A stretch of DNA of 32,628 bases, taken from contig JBILDU010000027.1 in NCBI GenBank assembly GCA_044352465.1, positions 1 to 32,628 on the forward strand, read 5' to 3'. Source of the stretch: Bdellovibrionota bacterium (GTDB lineage Bacteria > Bdellovibrionota_C > UBA2361). Within the stretch, counting starts at the first letter, position 1; every line of letters starts with the position of its first letter. Shown here in pieces: positions 1-16,150 of the stretch. The notes below the pieces were generated by a model. The model did not search any database. It worked only from the letters and a program-made list of their open reading frames with translations, and was not told the DNA's origin. A program made the translations under genes and the position numbers.

Positions 1-391
1 TCGCCGAAATCTGGATCGTCTCACCGGTCGCTGGGTTGCGGCCCATGCGCGCCTTGGTGTGGCGAACGTACATCTTGCCAAGACCAAAGAGCGGGATCTT
101 GTAGCCACGGCGGAGCGAATCCTTCACAAAGGACGCAATGTCCTCGATGAGCTCGCGAGCTTGCGAGCGCTTGTCGAGACCACAGAAGCCACGGACGTTC
201 TCGATGAACTCAGACTGAGTGTAGCTGAGGGTGCTCGTGTTCTTCGGCTTCGAGGCGGAGCGCACCTTCTGAACCTTCGCCGGAGCAGCAGCCTTAGCGG
301 CAGCCTTCGGAGCGGCCTTCTTCGCAGCAACTTTCTTAGCCGGAGCGGCTTTCTTAGCTACCTTCGCCTTCTTGGCGATTTTCTTTGCCAT
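1..391 (-). CDS. HU-family DNA-binding protein with N-terminal Lys/Ala/Pro-rich (histone H1-like) tail; 3' end runs off the window
   Basis: Manual translation of the reverse strand from ATG at 391: MAKKIAKKAKVAKKAAPAKKVAAKKAAPKAAAKAAAPAK...YTQSEFIENVRGFCGLDKRSQARELIEDIASFVKDSLRRGYKIPLFGLGKMYVRHTKARMGRNPATGETIQISA. The GLG and GRNPATGETIQI segments match the HU/IHF signature. SD-like AAGGGGA lies upstream. Not in the supplied ORF track. Confidence 0.92.
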   Translation of the reverse strand, partial: MAKKIAKKAKVAKKAAPAKKVAAKKAAPKAAAKAAAPAKVQKVRSASKPKNTSTLSYTQSEFIENVRGFCGLDKRSQARELIEDIASFVKDSLRRGYKIPLFGLGKMYVRHTKARMGRNPATGETIQISA

Positions 392-872
392 ATACAATTC
401 CCCTTTAAGGAGTGAATAAATATTCGAAACTTTCCATCACGCCGCTTCCGGTGGTCCCCCTCGACATCTCCAAGACAACGAGGAGAAACACTCAAAATCG
501 GCGTAAAAAGCCCGAAATGCCGCAGCATTTCGCGGTTTATGATAGAAACACTGTGGACATTAAATCAATAAAAAAAAGAGCGAAAGATACATTTTTGAAT
601 TTTAGATCGCTCATAAAAGGGCGAAAAACCCCACGAAAAGCACGTTTTCTCTTCCCCCGCGGGGAACTCAGGCCAACCGACGGGGTCGCGCAGCCTCCCT
701 GCATAGCCCAAAAAAAAGGGGCGACGGCAACGCGACACGCCTCCGCGAGACGCTCGCGAAAAGTCTCTTAAAATGCCGTAAATACGCCCATTTTAGACAA
801 AAAGCGGTCCCCTGTGATGCCGGACGGAACCGGGATCCGCAGGACACAAGGGTCACCGCGAGACAGCGCCCC

Positions 873-899
873 AGGTTCAGGAGTGAAGGTTCAGGAGTG
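873..899. repeat. Perfect 13-bp direct repeat AGGTTCAGGAGTG x2 (period 14)
   Basis: Copies at 873-885 and 887-899, read directly. Confidence 0.85.
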
Positions 900-1568
900 C
901 GCTATCAGCCAAAGCAAGGTGTCTCAATAACCCTTCAGCGAGGACACTTTTAAGCCGCAAATCGTCCGTCCGAGCCCCCTACTTTCCCCACGATTTGTCG
1001 ATTCAACCAGGAGTGGCCGGCCTGAGCATCGCCTGGTGGGACGCTTCATAGCTAAACGCTTCCCCGATCCGGGTGAGGAATCGGTGGAAGGTGTTCGGCG
1101 CCCGACGCAACGCGAAGGAGGGCCCATCTTTCAGGCTCTCCACAGTTTGGAGCGCGTTCGCGTTAGGGCAGACTTCGGCCGTGGCATCGACGAGCTCGTC
1201 GGAGTCAGCCGAACGGAGCCCAAAGGCGAACCGGACCAAGAAGCGAGTGCCCCGCCCCCGGCTCAACTCTCAGGTGAAAAATGTCGGGAGGGAGTGTCCG
1301 CCCCCAATTGCACCCCCCTTTGATGACCTCAGAAACGGCTCACCAAGCCGGTCGTCCTTGCCTCACAATACGTTTTAAGCCTCGAAAATCCGATTTTTAT
1401 CCAATAAATTCATAAGACTAAAAAAGTGGTGCGCAAAAAGCACACCAAGCCTCGAGCGCCTCATATCACTTTTAGAGTTTCGATTGACGGTTGTTTTCGA
1501 AGCTCTCGGTTGAGGTCAGGGTTTTTACCCGCCCCCGATTCAGGGCGGTAAGCGAAAGAGGTTGTAAA

Positions 1569-1895
1569 ATGGAAAATTCACAAAGTCAGAACGTGGCGCA
1601 GATTCAACACCTCCCCAGATTAAGTCGCACATCACGGCGCGGCAGGAAGCCGGAGTACCACGACCCGCGTCTTGTCGAACTCCTTTTCCAGTGCTGGCTC
1701 GAGCGCGAGCGGATGTGTGCGAAGCGTTTAGTGATTCAATTGGAGTCGTGGCTCAACGAGTTTGAGTCACGCAACGGCGCGACTCCTGAGGAGCTCAGGA
1801 AGATATTCCTGGAGATCAGCGCTGCCACTATCGACCGGGTTCTTAAGGGCCGCCGGGATGAGTGGTACGCCACGAATGGCAAGCTGCGGGCCTAG
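1569..1895 (+). CDS. Small protein (108 aa) resembling the non-catalytic DNA-binding portion of DDE/integrase-core transposases (ISNCY-like); no catalytic domain
   Basis: RRGRKPEY...LFQCW...MCAKRL...W...LLEISAATIDRVLK-like sequence (here FLEISAATIDRVLK) matches, from recall, the RGRxxxY...W...CGKRL...ISAATIDRLL block that precedes the DDE core in these transposases. The ORF stops about 14 codons later. ATG at 1569 has AAAGAGG upstream; the track start at 1491 is TTG. Confidence 0.65.
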   Translation: MENSQSQNVAQIQHLPRLSRTSRRGRKPEYHDPRLVELLFQCWLERERMCAKRLVIQLESWLNEFESRNGATPEELRKIFLEISAATIDRVLKGRRDEWYATNGKLRA

Positions 1896-1897
1896 AG

Positions 1898-1987
1898 TTT
1901 CGAACAACCCCCTCCCTAACGGGGCCCGGCCGGCCTCCCCCAACCCCCCCCACAAAGGGTCGGCTGGGCCTCGTTAGGGATTTTTTA
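1898..1987 (+). ncRNA. Putative structured small RNA, unit 1 (leader - 24-bp stem - 20-nt C-rich loop - U6)
   Basis: Leader TTTCGAACAACCCC at 1898-1911. Arms 1913-1936 and 1957-1980 pair 24/24 with 4 G-U. Loop CCCCCAACCCCCCCCACAAA at 1937-1956. TTTTTT at 1981-1986. Confidence 0.65.
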
Positions 1988-2007
1988 ACTCGATGTAAGG
2001 AATAAGA

Positions 2008-2097
2008 TTTCGAACAACCCCTTCCCCGGTGACGCTCGGCTCGCTTCCCCCAACCCCCCCCACAATAAGCGAGTCGGGTGCCACCGGGGATTTTTTA
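2008..2097 (+). ncRNA. Putative structured small RNA, unit 2 (same geometry, different stem sequence)
   Basis: Leader TTTCGAACAACCCC at 2008-2021. Arms 2023-2046 and 2067-2090 pair 23/24 with 3 G-U and one A-C mismatch. Loop CCCCCAACCCCCCCCACAAT at 2047-2066. TTTTTT at 2091-2096. Offset from unit 1 is exactly 110 bp. Confidence 0.65.
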
Positions 2098-2187: not shown

Positions 2188-3417
2188 GTGTGGGTGGTAT
2201 TTTTTTTCTTTCTGGGGACTCGGGCGGCGCTGGCCGAGGGGTTTTTCGCGAGTGCGGGACACGGTTTCTCGTTAGAACTTCCGGCGGGATACCAGGTGAT
2301 CGCGATACCCGAGCCCCGCGTGGCGCTCGCGGCGCGGCCGAGCGGTGGAGGATTCCCCACCCTGACCGTGACGGTTGAGCCTGGCCCGTTCCACGGGGAA
2401 CAACCGCAGGTGGAGCTCCGCGGAGCTCGTATCCTGGAGAGCTATCGGGCTATCGGGCTTATCGATGCCCAACTAAAAGGAGTTTCGACTCCCAGTGGGC
2501 GTGAGCGGACAACAGTAAACGCGCAACTTGAATACACTCAAGGGGAAAGACGCTTCCTCGCCGAGGTGACCGAGATAACCGTTCCAGAGCGACGAATCAC
2601 GGTTACGTGGCTCGGACCGCGGGAGGTTGTTCAGCATTCTTACGCTGACCTAAACAAGGTCAGGGAGTCGTTACGAGTGGAATCGGTGACAACCGTCGAT
2701 CCCGCTACTGCGCTGCGCCCTCTCGACTTCGGCCCCATCTACGCGGAAACCGAGATGGGGCGCTTTCCGGTCGAGCCGTGGAATACCGCCAGTAATTTGG
2801 TCTTTCTTCTGGTCCTCATCGTCTTTGCACGCCGTACCGCACTGGATAGACGCCGCTACCCTTTCCTCGTCCCAGGGCTCCTCGTTCTCGCCGTTGGATT
2901 TGTCGGTGGCACAGTTTATCACGCCACGCGGAGCCACAATGTTTGGCTCCTCCTCGACTTCTTGCCGATCTTAATCCTCACCGGAGCGGCCTCGATCTAC
3001 TTCTGGTGCGCCGTGGTGGCAAATCGCTACCTCGCGATAGCCCTCTGCCTTGCCTTGCTCCTCAGCGGGAGGCTTCTCCGGGTCTATCTGGAACTTCCGA
3101 AGAATCTGGGCATCACCCTAAGCTACCTCGGGGCCGCGCTCGCAATCCTCATCCCGGCGGCGCTTCACGCCCAACGTTGTGGACGGGAGCACCGCCGCTT
3201 TCTGGGGTGGGCCACGATCTTTTTCGCCCTCGCCCTCACCTGCCGGTATGTCGACAAAGGGGCCGGGATGACGTGGCTCCCTATGGGCACTCACTTTCTG
3301 TGGCACATTCTCGGAGGAATGAGTGTCTGGGCGCTCCTTCATTATATCGCGCGAATTGAGGAAGATGCCCAACGCGGCAAAGCGCAAGGTGACAATCCCC
3401 TCACGAGCGCACCGTGA
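2188..3417 (+). CDS. Membrane protein: signal peptide + soluble N-terminal domain (PsbP/DcrB-like by inference) fused to a CREST-superfamily ceramidase-like 7-TM domain
   Basis: The C-terminal half has YAE...EPWNTASNLVF, GGTVYHA, LDFLPI and GTHFLWH, typical of the alkaline-ceramidase/CREST Zn-binding motifs, with about 7 hydrophobic segments. The N-terminus is hydrophobic and ends in ALA, followed by GFSLELPAGY. GTG start is uncertain. Confidence 0.72.
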   Translation: MWVVFFFFLGTRAALAEGFFASAGHGFSLELPAGYQVIAIPEPRVALAARPSGGGFPTLTVTVEPGPFHGEQPQVELRGARILESYRAIGLIDAQLKGVSTPSGRERTTVNAQLEYTQGERRFLAEVTEITVPERRITVTWLGPREVVQHSYADLNKVRESLRVESVTTVDPATALRPLDFGPIYAETEMGRFPVEPWNTASNLVFLLVLIVFARRTALDRRRYPFLVPGLLVLAVGFVGGTVYHATRSHNVWLLLDFLPILILTGAASIYFWCAVVANRYLAIALCLALLLSGRLLRVYLELPKNLGITLSYLGAALAILIPAALHAQRCGREHRRFLGWATIFFALALTCRYVDKGAGMTWLPMGTHFLWHILGGMSVWALLHYIARIEEDAQRGKAQGDNPLTSAP

Positions 3418-4386: not shown

Positions 4387-4677
4387 GTGCGTAAAACTCC
4401 GCTTTCTGGTCCTTACTCCGCTCCGTGGTTTCAGTAACCACTTCCATCGGGGTCTTGGAAAGAGTTTTTCACAAATCTCTGGCAAGCGCCGGGGCTGTCA
4501 TCCCCTGGCAGCCCGAGCGCTGAACGGCTGCTCTGGTGAAAAGACCTTCGAGAAACCCCACTAGCCATATGATTAAACTAAAGATTTCGAACCAAAAGGC
4601 TTTAGAAATCTCCCCGAAAGACCGACCCATACTGTCAGCGGAAACTCGGCGACCCTCGCCCTCGAGCCTCTAAGAAT

Positions 4678-5412
4678 ATGATATCACCAAAGAAAACCAG
4701 GCTTTATCAGATCCTTGATGGGGATCGGGAACTGTCATCACCGCTCATTGAACGTTCGAGCCTTATACTGATCGCCGAGAAACCCCGACCGGTACTTCCA
4801 ACTGCGAGCGCCACTTGGATGACCGGAACAGCGCTCCTCGCCTTCCTCGGACTCCTCGCTCACGAATTCCGCGGGTACCTGACCGATCCGATTTATCAGG
4901 CGGGAGCCATCAGCATCTTTGTCTCGGTGCTCGTTGGTACCACACTGTGGGCTCGTTCGGGTTATCAAGAGATTCGGAATTTCGCCGCGACGTTGCGGCA
5001 ACCTCTGCGAGAGCTTGATGACATCCTCAGCTACCTCCAAACCTATCAAGCCGATCTTGACCGGAGGACTAGCCGCTATTTTCACTGTGTTACCAATACC
5101 AAAGTAACGTCGTATTTTGTGTTGTCACAAATCATCCTGGCGCTTCGAAAGCGTAGCGAGGAGGTCGCTGAGCTCCTCGACAATCCGGTGCGTGAGAATC
5201 TTCTGATCGCACACGAGTCGCTCTCGGGCACCCTCGTTTTTCGGGACTCGATGTCCCAGACCCACGGCACCGTCCACGTGATTCCGCTCGCTCGATTAAA
5301 GGTGACGATCGTTCAATTAATTGAATTTATCGATGAGGAGATTGCGAACCTCGAGCGTGAGCTCGTGATTGAACAGCAAAACTTCTCGACCGGCTCAGAT
5401 CTACCGAACTGA
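4678..5412 (+). CDS. Hypothetical membrane protein (two N-terminal TM helices, helical C-terminal region)
   Basis: 244-aa ORF filling the gap between mtnP and pepF. Hydrophobic segments WMTGTALLAFLGLLA and AGAISIFVSVLVGTTLW. No recognised motif; start uncertain. Confidence 0.7.
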   Translation: MISPKKTRLYQILDGDRELSSPLIERSSLILIAEKPRPVLPTASATWMTGTALLAFLGLLAHEFRGYLTDPIYQAGAISIFVSVLVGTTLWARSGYQEIRNFAATLRQPLRELDDILSYLQTYQADLDRRTSRYFHCVTNTKVTSYFVLSQIILALRKRSEEVAELLDNPVRENLLIAHESLSGTLVFRDSMSQTHGTVHVIPLARLKVTIVQLIEFIDEEIANLERELVIEQQNFSTGSDLPN

Positions 5413-12725: not shown

Positions 12726-13244
12726 TTACGGTTTCCTCATCGAAAGTTGGGGAGCTGCGCGACGACGTTTCGCCAACATTACCGCACCGACGATCGCTGC
12801 GATGATGAGGAGCGAGGCCGCCTCAAAGGTAAAGACGTATTTGGTGTAAAGGATCTGCCCGATCTCACGCACACCACCCGAAAGCTCCTTCGAGGGATCG
12901 GCGACACCGGCGAAGCCCGTTGAAAAGAGCTTCACGAGAAGCCCGATAAAAAGCGCGCCGATAACCCCGGCTGACATCAATATGGCTGTCCCGTAGCGCT
13001 TCGCCGCTTCGATCTTAATGTTCAACAGCATGATCACAAAGAGGAAGAGAACCATGATGGCACCGGCGTACACGATTACCTGCACCGCCGCGAGGAAGTG
13101 GGCATCGAGCATCGCAAAGAGCGCTGCCACCGCGAGGAGGTTCACCACCAGGGAAAGAGCGCTATGGATGGGGTTCCGTAGAGCCACCACCGCTAATCCG
13201 GAGAGCACCACCACGGCGCTCAGGAGGTAAAATAACGGTAACAT
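12726..13244 (-). CDS. nuoJ: NADH-quinone oxidoreductase subunit J
   Basis: [34 protein letters not shown] and FEAASLLI motifs. Confidence 0.96.
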
Positions 13245-14482
13245 CAGAGCACCCCTCCAACTTTAAGCGCCGCATACACCATAAGGTTCACCATGCTGAG
13301 GGGGAGTAAGATCTTCCACCCCAGATTCATAAGCTGGTCATACCGAAATCGGGGCAGGGTCCAGCGGATGACGATCTGTAAGACACAGAAGAAAACCACC
13401 TTCCCCATCAGGACACCGTGCCCGATGAGCGCGGCCCACCAGGCATTGGCGGGGAGTTCCACGAAAGGAAGATGCCATCCCCCAAAGAACAATAACGTAA
13501 TGACGAGAGAGAAGAGCGCTATCTCAGCGAACTCACCGAGCCAGAAGATCAAAAACTTCATCCCTGAATACTCGGTGAAGTAGCCCGCGACGAGCTCCGA
13601 CTCGCTCTCGGGAAGATCGAAAGGACCCCGCTTCGTCTCGGCCATCCCCACAACGAAGAGGATCAAGAACGATATCGGCTGGGTGACCACCCCCCACATC
13701 CCCTTCTGGGCCTCGACCATCTCATAAAGATCCATGGTGCCGTACACCACGATGACCGCAACAATCGCGATACCCATCGCGAGCTCGTACGAGATCATTT
13801 GAGCGGAAGCGCGCAGCCCACCGAGCAGAGAGAATTTATTCCGTCCACACCAGCCGGCGAGAGCAACGCCGTACACGGCGATCGACCCCATCGCCAGGAA
13901 GAAAAGTATCCCCGCATCCAGCGAGGAAACCTGCGCCCGGACGATCTGTCCCCCGACCTCAAAATCTGGTGCGAGTGGGACGATTGCGAACGCCAAAAAG
14001 ACCGGGAATACCGCCAGAAACGGCGCCAGGCAGTGCATAAAGTTCGAGGTACCTTCAGGCACGAAGTCCTCCTTCATGAGGGCCTTCACCGCATCGTTGA
14101 GGAGGGTGTTAATCACACCTAACACTCCCAGGCCCCGCACAATGTGCGGCGCCGCCGCAACGCCCAGCGCTCCCGCTCCCAGAGCCACCATCACGATCGA
14201 AGCGGTCAATCCGGGCAGGTAAGCGACACCGGAGGTCAGGAGGTTGACCAACACAAATCCGCCCCCAAGGACAAAGAGCGCGGCACCGAGAAGAAGGTGG
14301 ATCGCTAGGAACTTCTTGAGGAAAGGATTGGTGATCTCGAAAACCGCCCCGGCTCGATTGGCCCCGATACGGTCCTGTATGAGGGCCGACCCCTTTCGCT
14401 CTACCCATGTGCAGAGCGAGGCAAGTCCCATGATGACGTTAAAAACGATGAAAACTTTCACCGCGAGGATTAGTATCTCCAT
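13244..14482 (-). CDS. nuoH: NADH-quinone oxidoreductase subunit H, with an approximately 74-aa hydrophobic insertion
   Basis: ERK...QDRIGANR, DAVKALMKE, LLGGLRASAQMISYE, AETKRGPFDLPESESELVAGYFTEYSG and RWTLPRFRYDQLM motifs. Confidence 0.95.
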   Translation of the reverse strand: MEILILAVKVFIVFNVIMGLASLCTWVERKGSALIQDRIGANRAGAVFEITNPFLKKFLAIHLLLGAALFVLGGGFVLVNLLTSGVAYLPGLTASIVMVALGAGALGVAAAPHIVRGLGVLGVINTLLNDAVKALMKEDFVPEGTSNFMHCLAPFLAVFPVFLAFAIVPLAPDFEVGGQIVRAQVSSLDAGILFFLAMGSIAVYGVALAGWCGRNKFSLLGGLRASAQMISYELAMGIAIVAVIVVYGTMDLYEMVEAQKGMWGVVTQPISFLILFVVGMAETKRGPFDLPESESELVAGYFTEYSGMKFLIFWLGEFAEIALFSLVITLLFFGGWHLPFVELPANAWWAALIGHGVLMGKVVFFCVLQIVIRWTLPRFRYDQLMNLGWKILLPLSMVNLMVYAALKVGGVL

Positions 14483-14512
14483 GTTCTTCCCTTTCCTTGC
14501 TGCCCGCCGCTA

Positions 14513-16150
14513 TTAAACGCCCATCGCCGCTTGCCCGGCGCGGCTTGGCTCATAGGTGTTGAGATCAACCCCACACGATTTGATTGCTCCGATGGTGAGA
14601 CCTTGCAGCCGTGAATCAAGAGCAAGGTACCCAATGGTCAGATCACGATCGGTCTTCGCTTCGGTGACCTTCCCCCCAAGTGCGGCCGCGAGGCGGTTGA
14701 CCATCCGCCACTGCGGTTCCGTGCCGTTCGGGAAATCAAGGAAAGCATTGGTGTACTGGAGTCGCCCCGCGCGGTTCACCATAAGGCCAGATGTCTCAAG
14801 GATGCTGCGCGCTGGCAAAACGACGTGGGCCGCTGCCGCAAGCGGCGCGGCACCATCGGCGATACTCGCAACCGAGAACTGAGCACCACGTACCGCCGCG
14901 ATGACCTTATCATCCACGTCGTTGGCAAGAATACCACGGTCGCCAAATATCAGGACATTGGGGAACCCGTTCGCCTTGAGCTTCAACAGCGCTTCATCGT
15001 ACTTCGACTCGAGATTACCGGTCACGAGCCCGCCGTACTGTGCACCGAAGACGTTCGCTGCATAATCGGGGCTGACGAGGACCTTCTCTACGTCGTTGAG
15101 CTTTCGCTCGCGGTATCCAACCACCACCTCGACGCTCTTCACATGCTTTGTAAGGAAAGCTTTGATCAAAGCATATTCCTCGAGGAGGAGGTCGGGTCCC
15201 ACAAACACAACGGTCGGAGCCGAACGGAGCTTCCCCACGTCCCTCAACGCTTCGTCGATCGTGGCTACGGTCTTTCCGTGTACCGTTGGGGCGGTAACGC
15301 GCTGCGTGGGGAGAAAACGGTGGAAACCGTACCGCCCCTCGTCGCACAACCACTCCTTGTTCACCGCGCTATTAAGGCGGGCCTTCACCTGGACGACCTC
15401 GCCATCTCGGACTGCCACCTTGACATTGCAGCCGGTGGAACAACCGGGACAGATACCGTCGCTTTGCTTCGTAAACCAAATACGGGTGTTAAAGCGCCAA
15501 TCCCGATGGGTAAGCGCGCCCACCGGGCAGAGATCCACCACCGTGCCCGACAACGGATTATTCAACTCTCGACCCGGATTGATGGCGATAACAGAGCGGT
15601 CACCCCGATTGAGCATCCCCAGCTCCGAGGTCTTTGTCACCTCGTCACAAAAGCGGATACACCGGGTGCACATGATACATCGCTCACCATCCAGAATGAC
15701 CTTGGGGCCCAGCGGCTCAGCCTTTACCTTGTGCTCTTTCTGCTCAAGAAAGCGGCTGGGACGCGCGTTGTACTCGTAGTGGTAATCTTGGAGTTTACAA
15801 TGCCCTGCTTGATCACAGACGGTGCAATCGAGGGGGTGATTGATCAGAATAAACTCAAGCGTCGCCGCCTGCGCGTCCGCTACCGCCTTACTCGTGTGTT
15901 GAGTAAGGACCTCCATCCCCTCCTTCACCTGCGTATTACAACCGATGTCGAGCTTGGGAGCACCTTTCACCTGCACCTGACACATCCGGCAGTTACCTGC
16001 CACCGACAGATGGGGGTGGTAGCAGTAGTAAGGAACATCAACGCCAGCGGCCTTCGCCGCGTCGATGAGATTAGTGCCTTTCGGTACCGTGATAGCCTTC
16101 CCATCAACGGTGAGGTTCACCATCTCCGGTTTCGTGCCCTGTGCTGTCAT
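14513..16150 (-). CDS. nuoG: NADH-quinone oxidoreductase subunit G (short form, 545 aa)
   Basis: Fe-S motifs CYHP..AGNCRMC..C, HPLDCTVCDQAGHC, CIMCTRC...CPVGAL and CPGCSTGC...WLCDEGR (N7-type). Confidence 0.93.
   Translation of the reverse strand: MTAQGTKPEMVNLTVDGKAITVPKGTNLIDAAKAAGVDVPYYCYHPHLSVAGNCRMCQVQVKGAPKLDIGCNTQVKEGMEVLTQHTSKAVADAQAATLEFILINHPLDCTVCDQAGHCKLQDYHYEYNARPSRFLEQKEHKVKAEPLGPKVILDGERCIMCTRCIRFCDEVTKTSELGMLNRGDRSVIAINPGRELNNPLSGTVVDLCPVGALTHRDWRFNTRIWFTKQSDGICPGCSTGCNVKVAVRDGEVVQVKARLNSAVNKEWLCDEGRYGFHRFLPTQRVTAPTVHGKTVATIDEALRDVGKLRSAPTVVFVGPDLLLEEYALIKAFLTKHVKSVEVVVGYRERKLNDVEKVLVSPDYAANVFGAQYGGLVTGNLESKYDEALLKLKANGFPNVLIFGDRGILANDVDDKVIAAVRGAQFSVASIADGAAPLAAAAHVVLPARSILETSGLMVNRAGRLQYTNAFLDFPNGTEPQWRMVNRLAAALGGKVTEAKTDRDLTIGYLALDSRLQGLTIGAIKSCGVDLNTYEPSRAGQAAMGV

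Follow-up and report, generated by a model that had tools for sequence, protein, structure and literature searches.

The locus analyzed here raises the question of whether two tandem hairpins, alike in their loops and different in their stems, belong to a structured RNA family, and what such RNAs would do in a bacterium of the Bdellovibrionota. Both hairpins lie behind a short gene in the window, that is, the whole stretch of DNA that was analyzed (32,628 nucleotides), and the genome to which it belongs is denoted G000 below.

Tandem hairpins with covarying stems

The two units and their parts occupy the following window positions:

1898-1987, + strand: unit 1, with leader, stem, C/A loop and T tract; spacing to unit 2 of 110
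1903-1910, + strand: AACAACCC, the conserved part of the unit 1 leader
1913-1936 paired with 1957-1980, + strand: unit 1 stem, 24 bp by pair recount
1937-1956, + strand: unit 1 loop
1981-1986, + strand: unit 1 T tract
2008-2097, + strand: unit 2, with a leader as in unit 1
2023-2046 paired with 2067-2090, + strand: unit 2 stem, 23 pairs and one A-C mismatch
2047-2066, + strand: unit 2 loop
2091-2096, + strand: unit 2 T tract
1893..1898, + strand: TAGAGT, possible -10 box of unit 1 as read from the sequence, overlapping the stop codon of the upstream gene
2003..2008, + strand: TAAGAT, possible -10 box of unit 2, read in the same way

The first-pass annotation had described tandem units with covarying arms, and its figures were all reproduced: the unit spacing of 110, the loop identity of 19/20, the arm identities of 14/24 and 10/24, and the tally of the 24 pairs, of which 9 are the same in the two units, 8 have both partners replaced, 6 have a single partner replaced (wobble switches) and 1 is broken. 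The accompanying claim, that selection maintains pairing on the + strand, is borne out by the folding contrast between the strands and by a simulated null. Each unit folds on the + strand as a single hairpin of 23-24 bp, with RNA folding energies of -50.1 and -42.1 kcal/mol for units 1 and 2 (z of -5.48 and -6.50; 0 of 200 shuffles as good), whereas the corresponding z values on the - strand are -1.12 and -2.24. Transitions account for 20 of the 24 arm differences between the units, and this bias was built into the null because transitions tend to spare pairing through G-U. When the 10 + 14 substitutions were placed randomly with the observed bias, at least 23 pairs were kept in 13 of 200,000 trials, and with transitions only, in 514 of 200,000. 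The simulated nulls so rarely keep this many pairs that the pairing pattern is selected rather than due to chance.

A separate T tract follows each hairpin, in line with the terminator-like unit ends originally proposed, and unit 1 is likely to double as the natural terminator of the gene before it, which codes for a helix-turn-helix (HTH) protein. A copy of CAACCC lies in the 5' tail, and the same word recurs in the loop. The -10-like boxes (TAGAGT and TAAGAT in G000, TAAAGT in the same-genus genome G001) are located a few bases ahead of the AACAACCC tail; no TAnnnT occurs at the unit 1 position in the metagenome contig L030, where such boxes are not kept, and a scan with the sigma-70 consensus reported no promoter for either unit. 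A GG-N10-GC motif ahead of unit 1 was rejected as a promoter, being accounted for by the codons of the protein and absent before unit 2. A peptide encoded in the units was also rejected, given the lack of a start codon and of a conserved frame.

Several other features of the window were recorded. The 12-mer GATGTAAGGAAT occurs exactly twice in the genome, at 1992-2003, before unit 2, and at 2150-2161, where it precedes a T8 tract (~2199-2206) and may mark a decayed third unit or part of a promoter; the segment 2098-2212 folds no better than shuffled sequences. TAAAGATTTCGAAC, which is similar to the sequence ahead of the units, is found at 4579-4590, in the divergent spacer between a phosphorylase gene and the gene at 4678. 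In the frame behind unit 2 (2188-3417), a ceramidase-like membrane domain (PF05875) is recognized, but not before residue 195. In the nuo operon (13244-16150, - strand), nuoJ comes immediately after a nuoH-type gene (NADHdh, 412 aa, unusually long), nuoI being absent from the place between the two; NuoG, at 545 aa, is short.

A narrowly distributed family

Comparison with Rfam 15 at the gathering threshold yielded no match in the window (the best score over the two units was 21.7 bits, against a threshold of 53.1), nor was there a match over the units of L030 and L005; the family is uncatalogued, as had been suspected. A REP or MITE, the alternative named in the first-pass annotation, is incompatible with the copy number: loop and leader each occur exactly twice in the 3.13-Mb genome, at one locus and in one orientation, so the units are neither. 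A covariance model run on G000 recovered the two units together with their antisense echoes, every other match having an E of 0.58 or worse; the candidate third copy at that value (contig C113) is antisense and inside a gene, and was rejected. A descriptor scan for hairpins with C-rich loops pointed to 10 places, with the long stem and the T tract present at the two units alone.

Homologs with maintained pairing were found in the form of three further units, one in G001 and two in L030. The G001 unit, a third version, lies directly 3' of the orthologous upstream gene, and a second unit cannot be judged there because the contig ends ~25 bp after the first. The L030 contig carries two units behind an ortholog of the HTH gene (71% identical). 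These additional units fold at z of -6.7 to -7.9. The HTH gene is followed by a unit at 3 of 3 unit loci, with unit 1 starting at the stop codon in all of them, in a comparison that covered the flanks of 3 of the 16 other close HTH homologs. Two units are kept in two lineages despite a different downstream gene, which is co-directional in G000 and apparently convergent in L030.

In the alignment of the five units, 115 of 119 cells are paired, compared with 29-56% in slid controls, a result to be read with the provisos that related sequences can beat shuffles and that five sequences are too few for R-scape. Double changes affect 11 of the 24 pairs, and on the + strand there are 15 G-U cells vs 3 A-C cells. 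The stems are about 22-25 bp long in all units. Most pairs vary, so that the initial impression of a free stem sequence holds for much of the stem, but 6 of the 24 pairs never vary, including the fixed UCCC/GGGA base. The covarying hairpin pair is, with high confidence, a real feature, and the compensatory change is unusually clean for an uncatalogued structured RNA.

The unpaired portions are conserved to different extents. The 14-nt leader, at first taken as invariant, is identical in the G000 units, changed in L030 unit 1 and absent from L030 unit 2, which has another leader; the part common to the family is only AACAACCC, present in 4 of the 5 units. The conserved, exposed C-rich loop proved more general: an unpaired C-rich loop sits on a stable stem in all five units, with 10-15 C and 0-1 G, and, edge bases excepted, consists of C and A alone. 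The exact 20-nt loop is not general, however, as in L030 the loops have other lengths and another arrangement of C runs, leaving the core CCCCAACCCC with variable C runs. Between G000 and G001 the loops are identical, even though the adjacent gene, with a dS of 1.74, is close to saturation at its synonymous sites.

Among 61 relatives, the exact loop pattern matched G000 and G001 alone. The R1 model, with which at most 50 candidates per genome were scored, produced strong matches in 2 of 91 genomes of the order; a third match, in G032 (locus L120), is weak (29 bits) and unconfirmed, and corresponds to a roughly 14-15-bp terminator with a similar loop. Two G032 hairpins of ~14-15 bp with C/A-rich loops (L120:1501-1567 and L133:1501-1563), one of which has a T tract behind a gene, are possible distant or convergent relatives of the units. 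A looser pattern matched 14 of 124 genomes, with the motif inside a long stem at 0 of 13 new loci, and outside the order, in 33 further genomes from its class and phylum, it yielded no confirmed unit. The exact pattern gave six matches in species genomes, five without such a stem and the sixth being a unit already counted; one and six matches in viral collections, none significant; two chance 25-nt matches in phages; and none in plasmids. Several of the searched genomes are incomplete, and absence here means not found among those searched. The family is narrow, comprising five units at three loci in an Oligoflexia-like lineage. Literature on sibling and C-rich-loop RNAs, on Oligoflexia RNA motifs and on the loop string offered no description of it, within a coverage that left out most subscription journals. 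We conclude that this is a new, narrowly distributed structured RNA family that resembles C-rich-loop small RNAs (sRNAs) but failed sequence-level tests of membership in them.

The upstream gene and its half-sites

The following features precede the units:

1358..1365, + strand: TTGCCTCA half-site, identical in sequence to the end repeat's outer half in the parent insertion sequence (IS) family; putative binding site of the encoded HTH protein
1433..1447, - strand: sigma-54-like GG-N10-GC motif, pointing away from the HTH gene; identical in G000 and G001
1457-1465, + strand: CGCCTCATA, a second half-site-like sequence within the conserved block 1457..1506
1474-1483 with 1497-1506, + strand: 10-bp hairpin (inverted repeat), the loop of which holds GGTTG
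1569..1895, + strand: P0001, a 108-aa stand-alone Myb/homeodomain-like HTH protein, according to homology, tree and predicted fold

P0001 belongs to no Pfam or NCBIfam family; it aligns at 36% identity with residues 86-163 in an rve transposase of 424 aa, a member of an IS481-like group. It corresponds to the second HTH subdomain of these transposases (PF00665, ~390-420 aa), without the first HTH and without the catalytic domain, and the upstream half-site corresponds to their end repeat; the IS family name is approximate because full-length relatives score 36 and 28 bits against the IS481 cut-off of 224. Searches recovered 16 homologs of P0001, of 100-167 aa, one assigned to Oligoflexia in its source record, and 79 of the 80 metagenome loci kept are rve transposases or broken copies of them. 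The short HTH proteins are not random fragments, given their dN/dS of 0.10-0.18 (purifying selection), the gap in profile search scores (at least 125 bits for stand-alone proteins vs at most 84 bits for others), and a tree in which a 100/100 branch separates 20 stand-alone rows from 24 other rows, the latter having been hand-picked from the matches and the root being a midpoint only. P0001 is modeled as a bundle of helices (pLDDT ~89 for residues 31-100), the best fold matches of which are Myb/SANT/homeodomain-like, with the Tc3 and TnsB transposases lower, all at Z of 6.0 or less, which is below the level showing kinship. Foldseek with this model gave no match at E 0.001, and in the protein atlas P0001 matches unnamed clusters only, with rve clusters appearing by structure.

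The HTH gene was detected in 3 of 91 genomes of the order. In one of these, G050, which belongs to another family, no unit lies within 16 kb around it, so the RNA is either a later addition or was lost in G050. The order HU-HTH-unit is kept in G000 and G001, and the position of the HTH locus behind the HU gene in both implies that it is not currently mobile. An active IS481-like insertion sequence was rejected: there is no rve/DDE domain, the half-sites are upstream only, no right end is present, and the copy is single. The HU-family protein (window 1-391, - strand) has a long Lys/Ala-rich N-terminal tail of histone-H1-like composition, a design shared with G001. A 3'-5' exonuclease gene (PF01612; G001:C138:10789-11535) is inserted between the HU and HTH genes of G001; tblastn found no counterpart in G000, where ~950 bp (window 400-1350) without a recognized gene take its place.

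The end motif that we presumed for the IS481-like group was compared with transposase flanks, and a permissive 6-mer search matched all 56 upstream flanks and 47 of the 51 downstream ones, many of the loci being near-copies. The end repeat of the full-length relatives reads TTG(A/C)CTCA..N..GT(A/T)ACC, mostly twice per end in the displayed contexts. TTGCCTCA, without the GT(A/T)ACC half, precedes the HTH gene by 211 bp in G000, 220 bp in G001 and 215 bp in G050, whereas the background frequency of this 8-mer is 0.011 per 400 intergenic bases; the full end-repeat pattern occurs once in G000, elsewhere than at the HTH locus. The same arrangement of HTH gene and half-site is seen at window 1358-1895, L005 911-1457 and L011 about 1468-2030 (minus strand). 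Retention of one subdomain together with one half-site suggests a domesticated, self-regulating DNA-binding protein, with the binding itself being a prediction. The stand-alone HTH gene is a clear candidate for a case in which a bacterium domesticated the DNA-binding subdomain of a transposase along with its half-site. Across the whole genome, 33 of 81 TTGCCTCA occurrences are intergenic, vs 21 +/- 7% for 40 shuffles; this excess was not counted as regulon evidence because the complement holds a stop codon and GAGG. An intergenic inverted pair, TTGCCTCAT..ATGAGGCAA (G000:C96:2750-2776), upstream of a gene for a secreted-looking protein, resembles a two-half-site operator for the HTH protein.

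The block 1457..1506 is nearly invariant across G000, G001 and L030, with a folding z of -1.9 to -4.0. In its 10-bp hairpin, 30 of 30 cells pair, with one-sided variation only and no double changes. The GG-N10-GC motif at 1433..1447, compared between G000 and G001 given that the L030 contig starts downstream, looks toward the HU gene and the stretches of conserved non-coding sequence at 1358-1425, and a divergent RNA may start there.

Possible functions of the units

Our preferred reading, to which we give slightly less than an even chance, is that the units are Hfq-independent sibling sRNAs whose terminator loop pairs with G-rich mRNA. The units would be non-coding RNAs of ~80-85 nt, transcribed either from their own -10 boxes or by processing of, or read-through from, the HTH mRNA. 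The hairpin base and U tract would end transcription and protect the 3' end, and the stem of 22-25 bp would serve as a stiff support, drifting in sequence while changes are compensated. Function would reside in the C/A loop, with the core CCCCAACCCC, providing seed pairing with G/U-rich mRNA stretches, with the core GGGGUUGGGG, without Hfq. Consisting only of C and A, the loop cannot self-pair and stays open, and it can pair only with G/U-rich RNA. The neighboring transposase-derived HTH protein may control the units through the retained transposon-end half-sites. The observed elements of this reading are the structure, the covariation, the strand, the copy number and the place behind the HTH gene at all three loci. 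Hfq was not found in any of the 4 genomes tried.

The search for targets weakens the pairing part. When 2662 G000 start regions were ranked for loop pairing, G-rich candidates were seen, and two were rejected as not kept in G001: an ion-channel leader (-33.7 in G000) and the mdh-sdhC spacer (rank 14 of 2662 in G000). The start region of the HTH gene itself was rejected as well, its pairing being average (51st percentile). Starting from GGGGTTGGGG sites in G001, of which 21 are non-self, the 10-mer is kept in G000 at 0 of 15 that could be aligned. Looser sites gave 98 matches in G001, of which 29 loci were used for 26 alignments, some duplicated; pairing of -24 kcal/mol or better is kept in 2 of the 26, neither at a predicted start region, in a comparison of two genomes, one of them (G001) 78% complete, that covered part of the sites and used starts called by a simple script. 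The G000 ribosome sites are of ordinary AGGAG types, which a U-free loop matches poorly, and the UCCC/CCUCC anti-Shine-Dalgarno motif is absent from the unit loops. The base-pairing reading is further weakened by C-run lengths that differ between G000 and L030, and by the number of units, five only.

With no conserved target and a poor fit to AGGAG, a role as a protein-titrating sponge or decoy becomes a serious rival, even if in itself a rather unlikely one. Here the C/A loop and the CAACCC tail would bind a single-strand RNA-binding protein (an RRM protein, the C-preferring site of Rho, or a cold-shock or KH protein), the stem would be a handle, and the two copies would raise the dose. The recurrence of CAACCC in tail and loop fits such a role, C-run variation is tolerable for a protein site, the failure to find a conserved mRNA target between G000 and G001 is in its favor, and three RRM domains are encoded in G000 and 2-3 in three relatives tried; yet RRM proteins are also present in the RNA-less relatives G002 and G050, and CsrB-type sponges use many short GGA hairpins, not one long stem. 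We consider it unlikely that the units are instead the cis-acting 3' end of the HTH mRNA. In that case they would be tandem terminators and stabilizers governing how much HTH protein is made, either through pairing of the CAACC tail back onto GGUUG motifs in the 5' untranslated region or through stems that act as sites for RNase III, an enzyme able to cut a stem of this length. The start of unit 1 at the HTH stop codon at each locus is what this reading would predict, neither the GGTTG of the upstream loop nor the one next to the ribosome site varies, and in G000 the pairing probability between the tail and the 5' region reaches 0.99, with no more than 2 of 2608 leader regions pairing equally well. 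The fold-back does not, however, stand out in G001, where 108 of 2608 regions do as well, or in L030, where 1322 of 2608 do, and it is absent from the predicted folds of both; the conserved loop and the second unit are left unexplained; and the HTH gene of G050 has no nearby unit. RNase III (PF14622) is present in G001, G002 and G050 but was not found in G000 (94.9% complete), which may reflect an assembly gap.

That the units are a DNA-level element left by an insertion sequence (a REP/MITE, transposon end, single-stranded DNA hairpin or G-quadruplex site) is very unlikely. They adjoin a transposase-derived gene, their opposite strand is G-rich, and DNA folding slightly favors the + strand (-24.2/-21.0 vs -20.6/-17.6). 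Against this, two copies lie at one locus in one orientation, the T tract is one-sided, the HU-HTH-unit order is kept in G000 and G001, and no R1 match above 22 bits was found in 79 transposase-type loci, the ends of which carry a different repeat. We attach hardly any probability to a template or mimic RNA, whether for a reverse transcriptase or acting on a protist predator or host. The loop resembles C4A2, the telomere repeat of ciliates, and CAACCCCAA, the template of Tetrahymena telomerase; the latter string is exact in the L030 unit 1 loop (L030:528-546), and CCCCAACCCC occurs in ciliate literature. The G000 loops have C5 and C8 runs rather than C4, a low-complexity likeness arises easily, so that CAACCCCAA in L030 is probably a coincidence, and a reverse transcriptase (PF00078) was not found in G000 or G001.

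The units may form part of a larger module derived from a domesticated insertion sequence, in which the second HTH subdomain of the transposase would have become a transcription factor recognizing half of the end repeat, and the tandem single-hairpin RNAs of the new family, each with a U-free C/A loop on a two-turn helix, would be its output arm, acquired in one sub-lineage and working either by pairing with G/U-rich RNA or by titrating a C-binding protein, possibly with feedback on the HTH mRNA; we regard this as conceivable but doubtful.

Comparison with known RNAs

C-rich-loop sRNAs include cuckoo/CcsR, RsaE, FsrA and sX13, some of them in tandem behind a small gene; these present CCUCCUCCC/UCCC anti-Shine-Dalgarno loops on short stems, whereas the units lack any Rfam match. 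In RepG of Helicobacter pylori, a terminator loop that is rich in C and U acts on a G-repeat target (PMC8295292). The likeness is in a C-rich terminator loop as the proposed working site, for which a G-rich mRNA target would fit; the units differ in having a C/A loop, a single hairpin of 22-25 bp and tandem copies. LhrC1-5 of Listeria monocytogenes are multicopy RNAs that measure 111-114 nt, contain two stem-loops, carry UCCC motifs in the loops and the linker, and are almost identical from copy to copy (PMC4132741). The units share with them the multicopy siblings and a C-rich motif in a single-stranded stretch and a terminator loop, and differ in having one hairpin, stems diverged by compensation and a loop without UCCC. 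The 6C RNA of Actinobacteria has two C-rich loops (L2 and L3) per RNA on stable stems, is conserved across high-GC Gram-positives, and pairs with G-rich leaders independently of a chaperone (PMC6486639). The C-run loop on a stable stem is common to both and chaperone-free pairing is the model mechanism, whereas the units have one A-interrupted loop each, their own T tract, a narrow Oligoflexia-like range and no Rfam match.

Other classes fit less well. TROVE/Ro60, looked for as the partner of bacterial Y RNAs, was not found in 4 of 4 genomes (G000 being 94.9% complete), and none is adjacent to the units; as regards retrons, the window contains no reverse transcriptase, and PF00078 was absent from the searches of G000 and G001. 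The failure to find Ro60 and reverse transcriptase in G000 and G001 speaks against Y RNA and template roles. A CRISPR- or TIGR-type guide array was rejected, the variable parts being fully base-paired together and no effector being present among the 26 window proteins scanned. In comparison with type I/III toxin-antitoxin systems, the neighbor models as a DNA-binding HTH protein, and the 5' fold-back is strong in G000 only.

Implications

Domestication of transposase DNA-binding domains is well described in eukaryotes. The candidate domesticated HTH described above was previously unnoted in the literature on transposase domestication covered here, which excludes most subscription journals. The unit-bearing lineage is a phylum-level group, with the reach of the finding limited by the lack of cultured hosts and by the narrow range. 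If the loop binds a protein, the units would represent a new sponge design; if it pairs with mRNA, chaperone-free regulation by C-rich loops would extend to a loop that is free of U and is not a plain anti-Shine-Dalgarno sequence.
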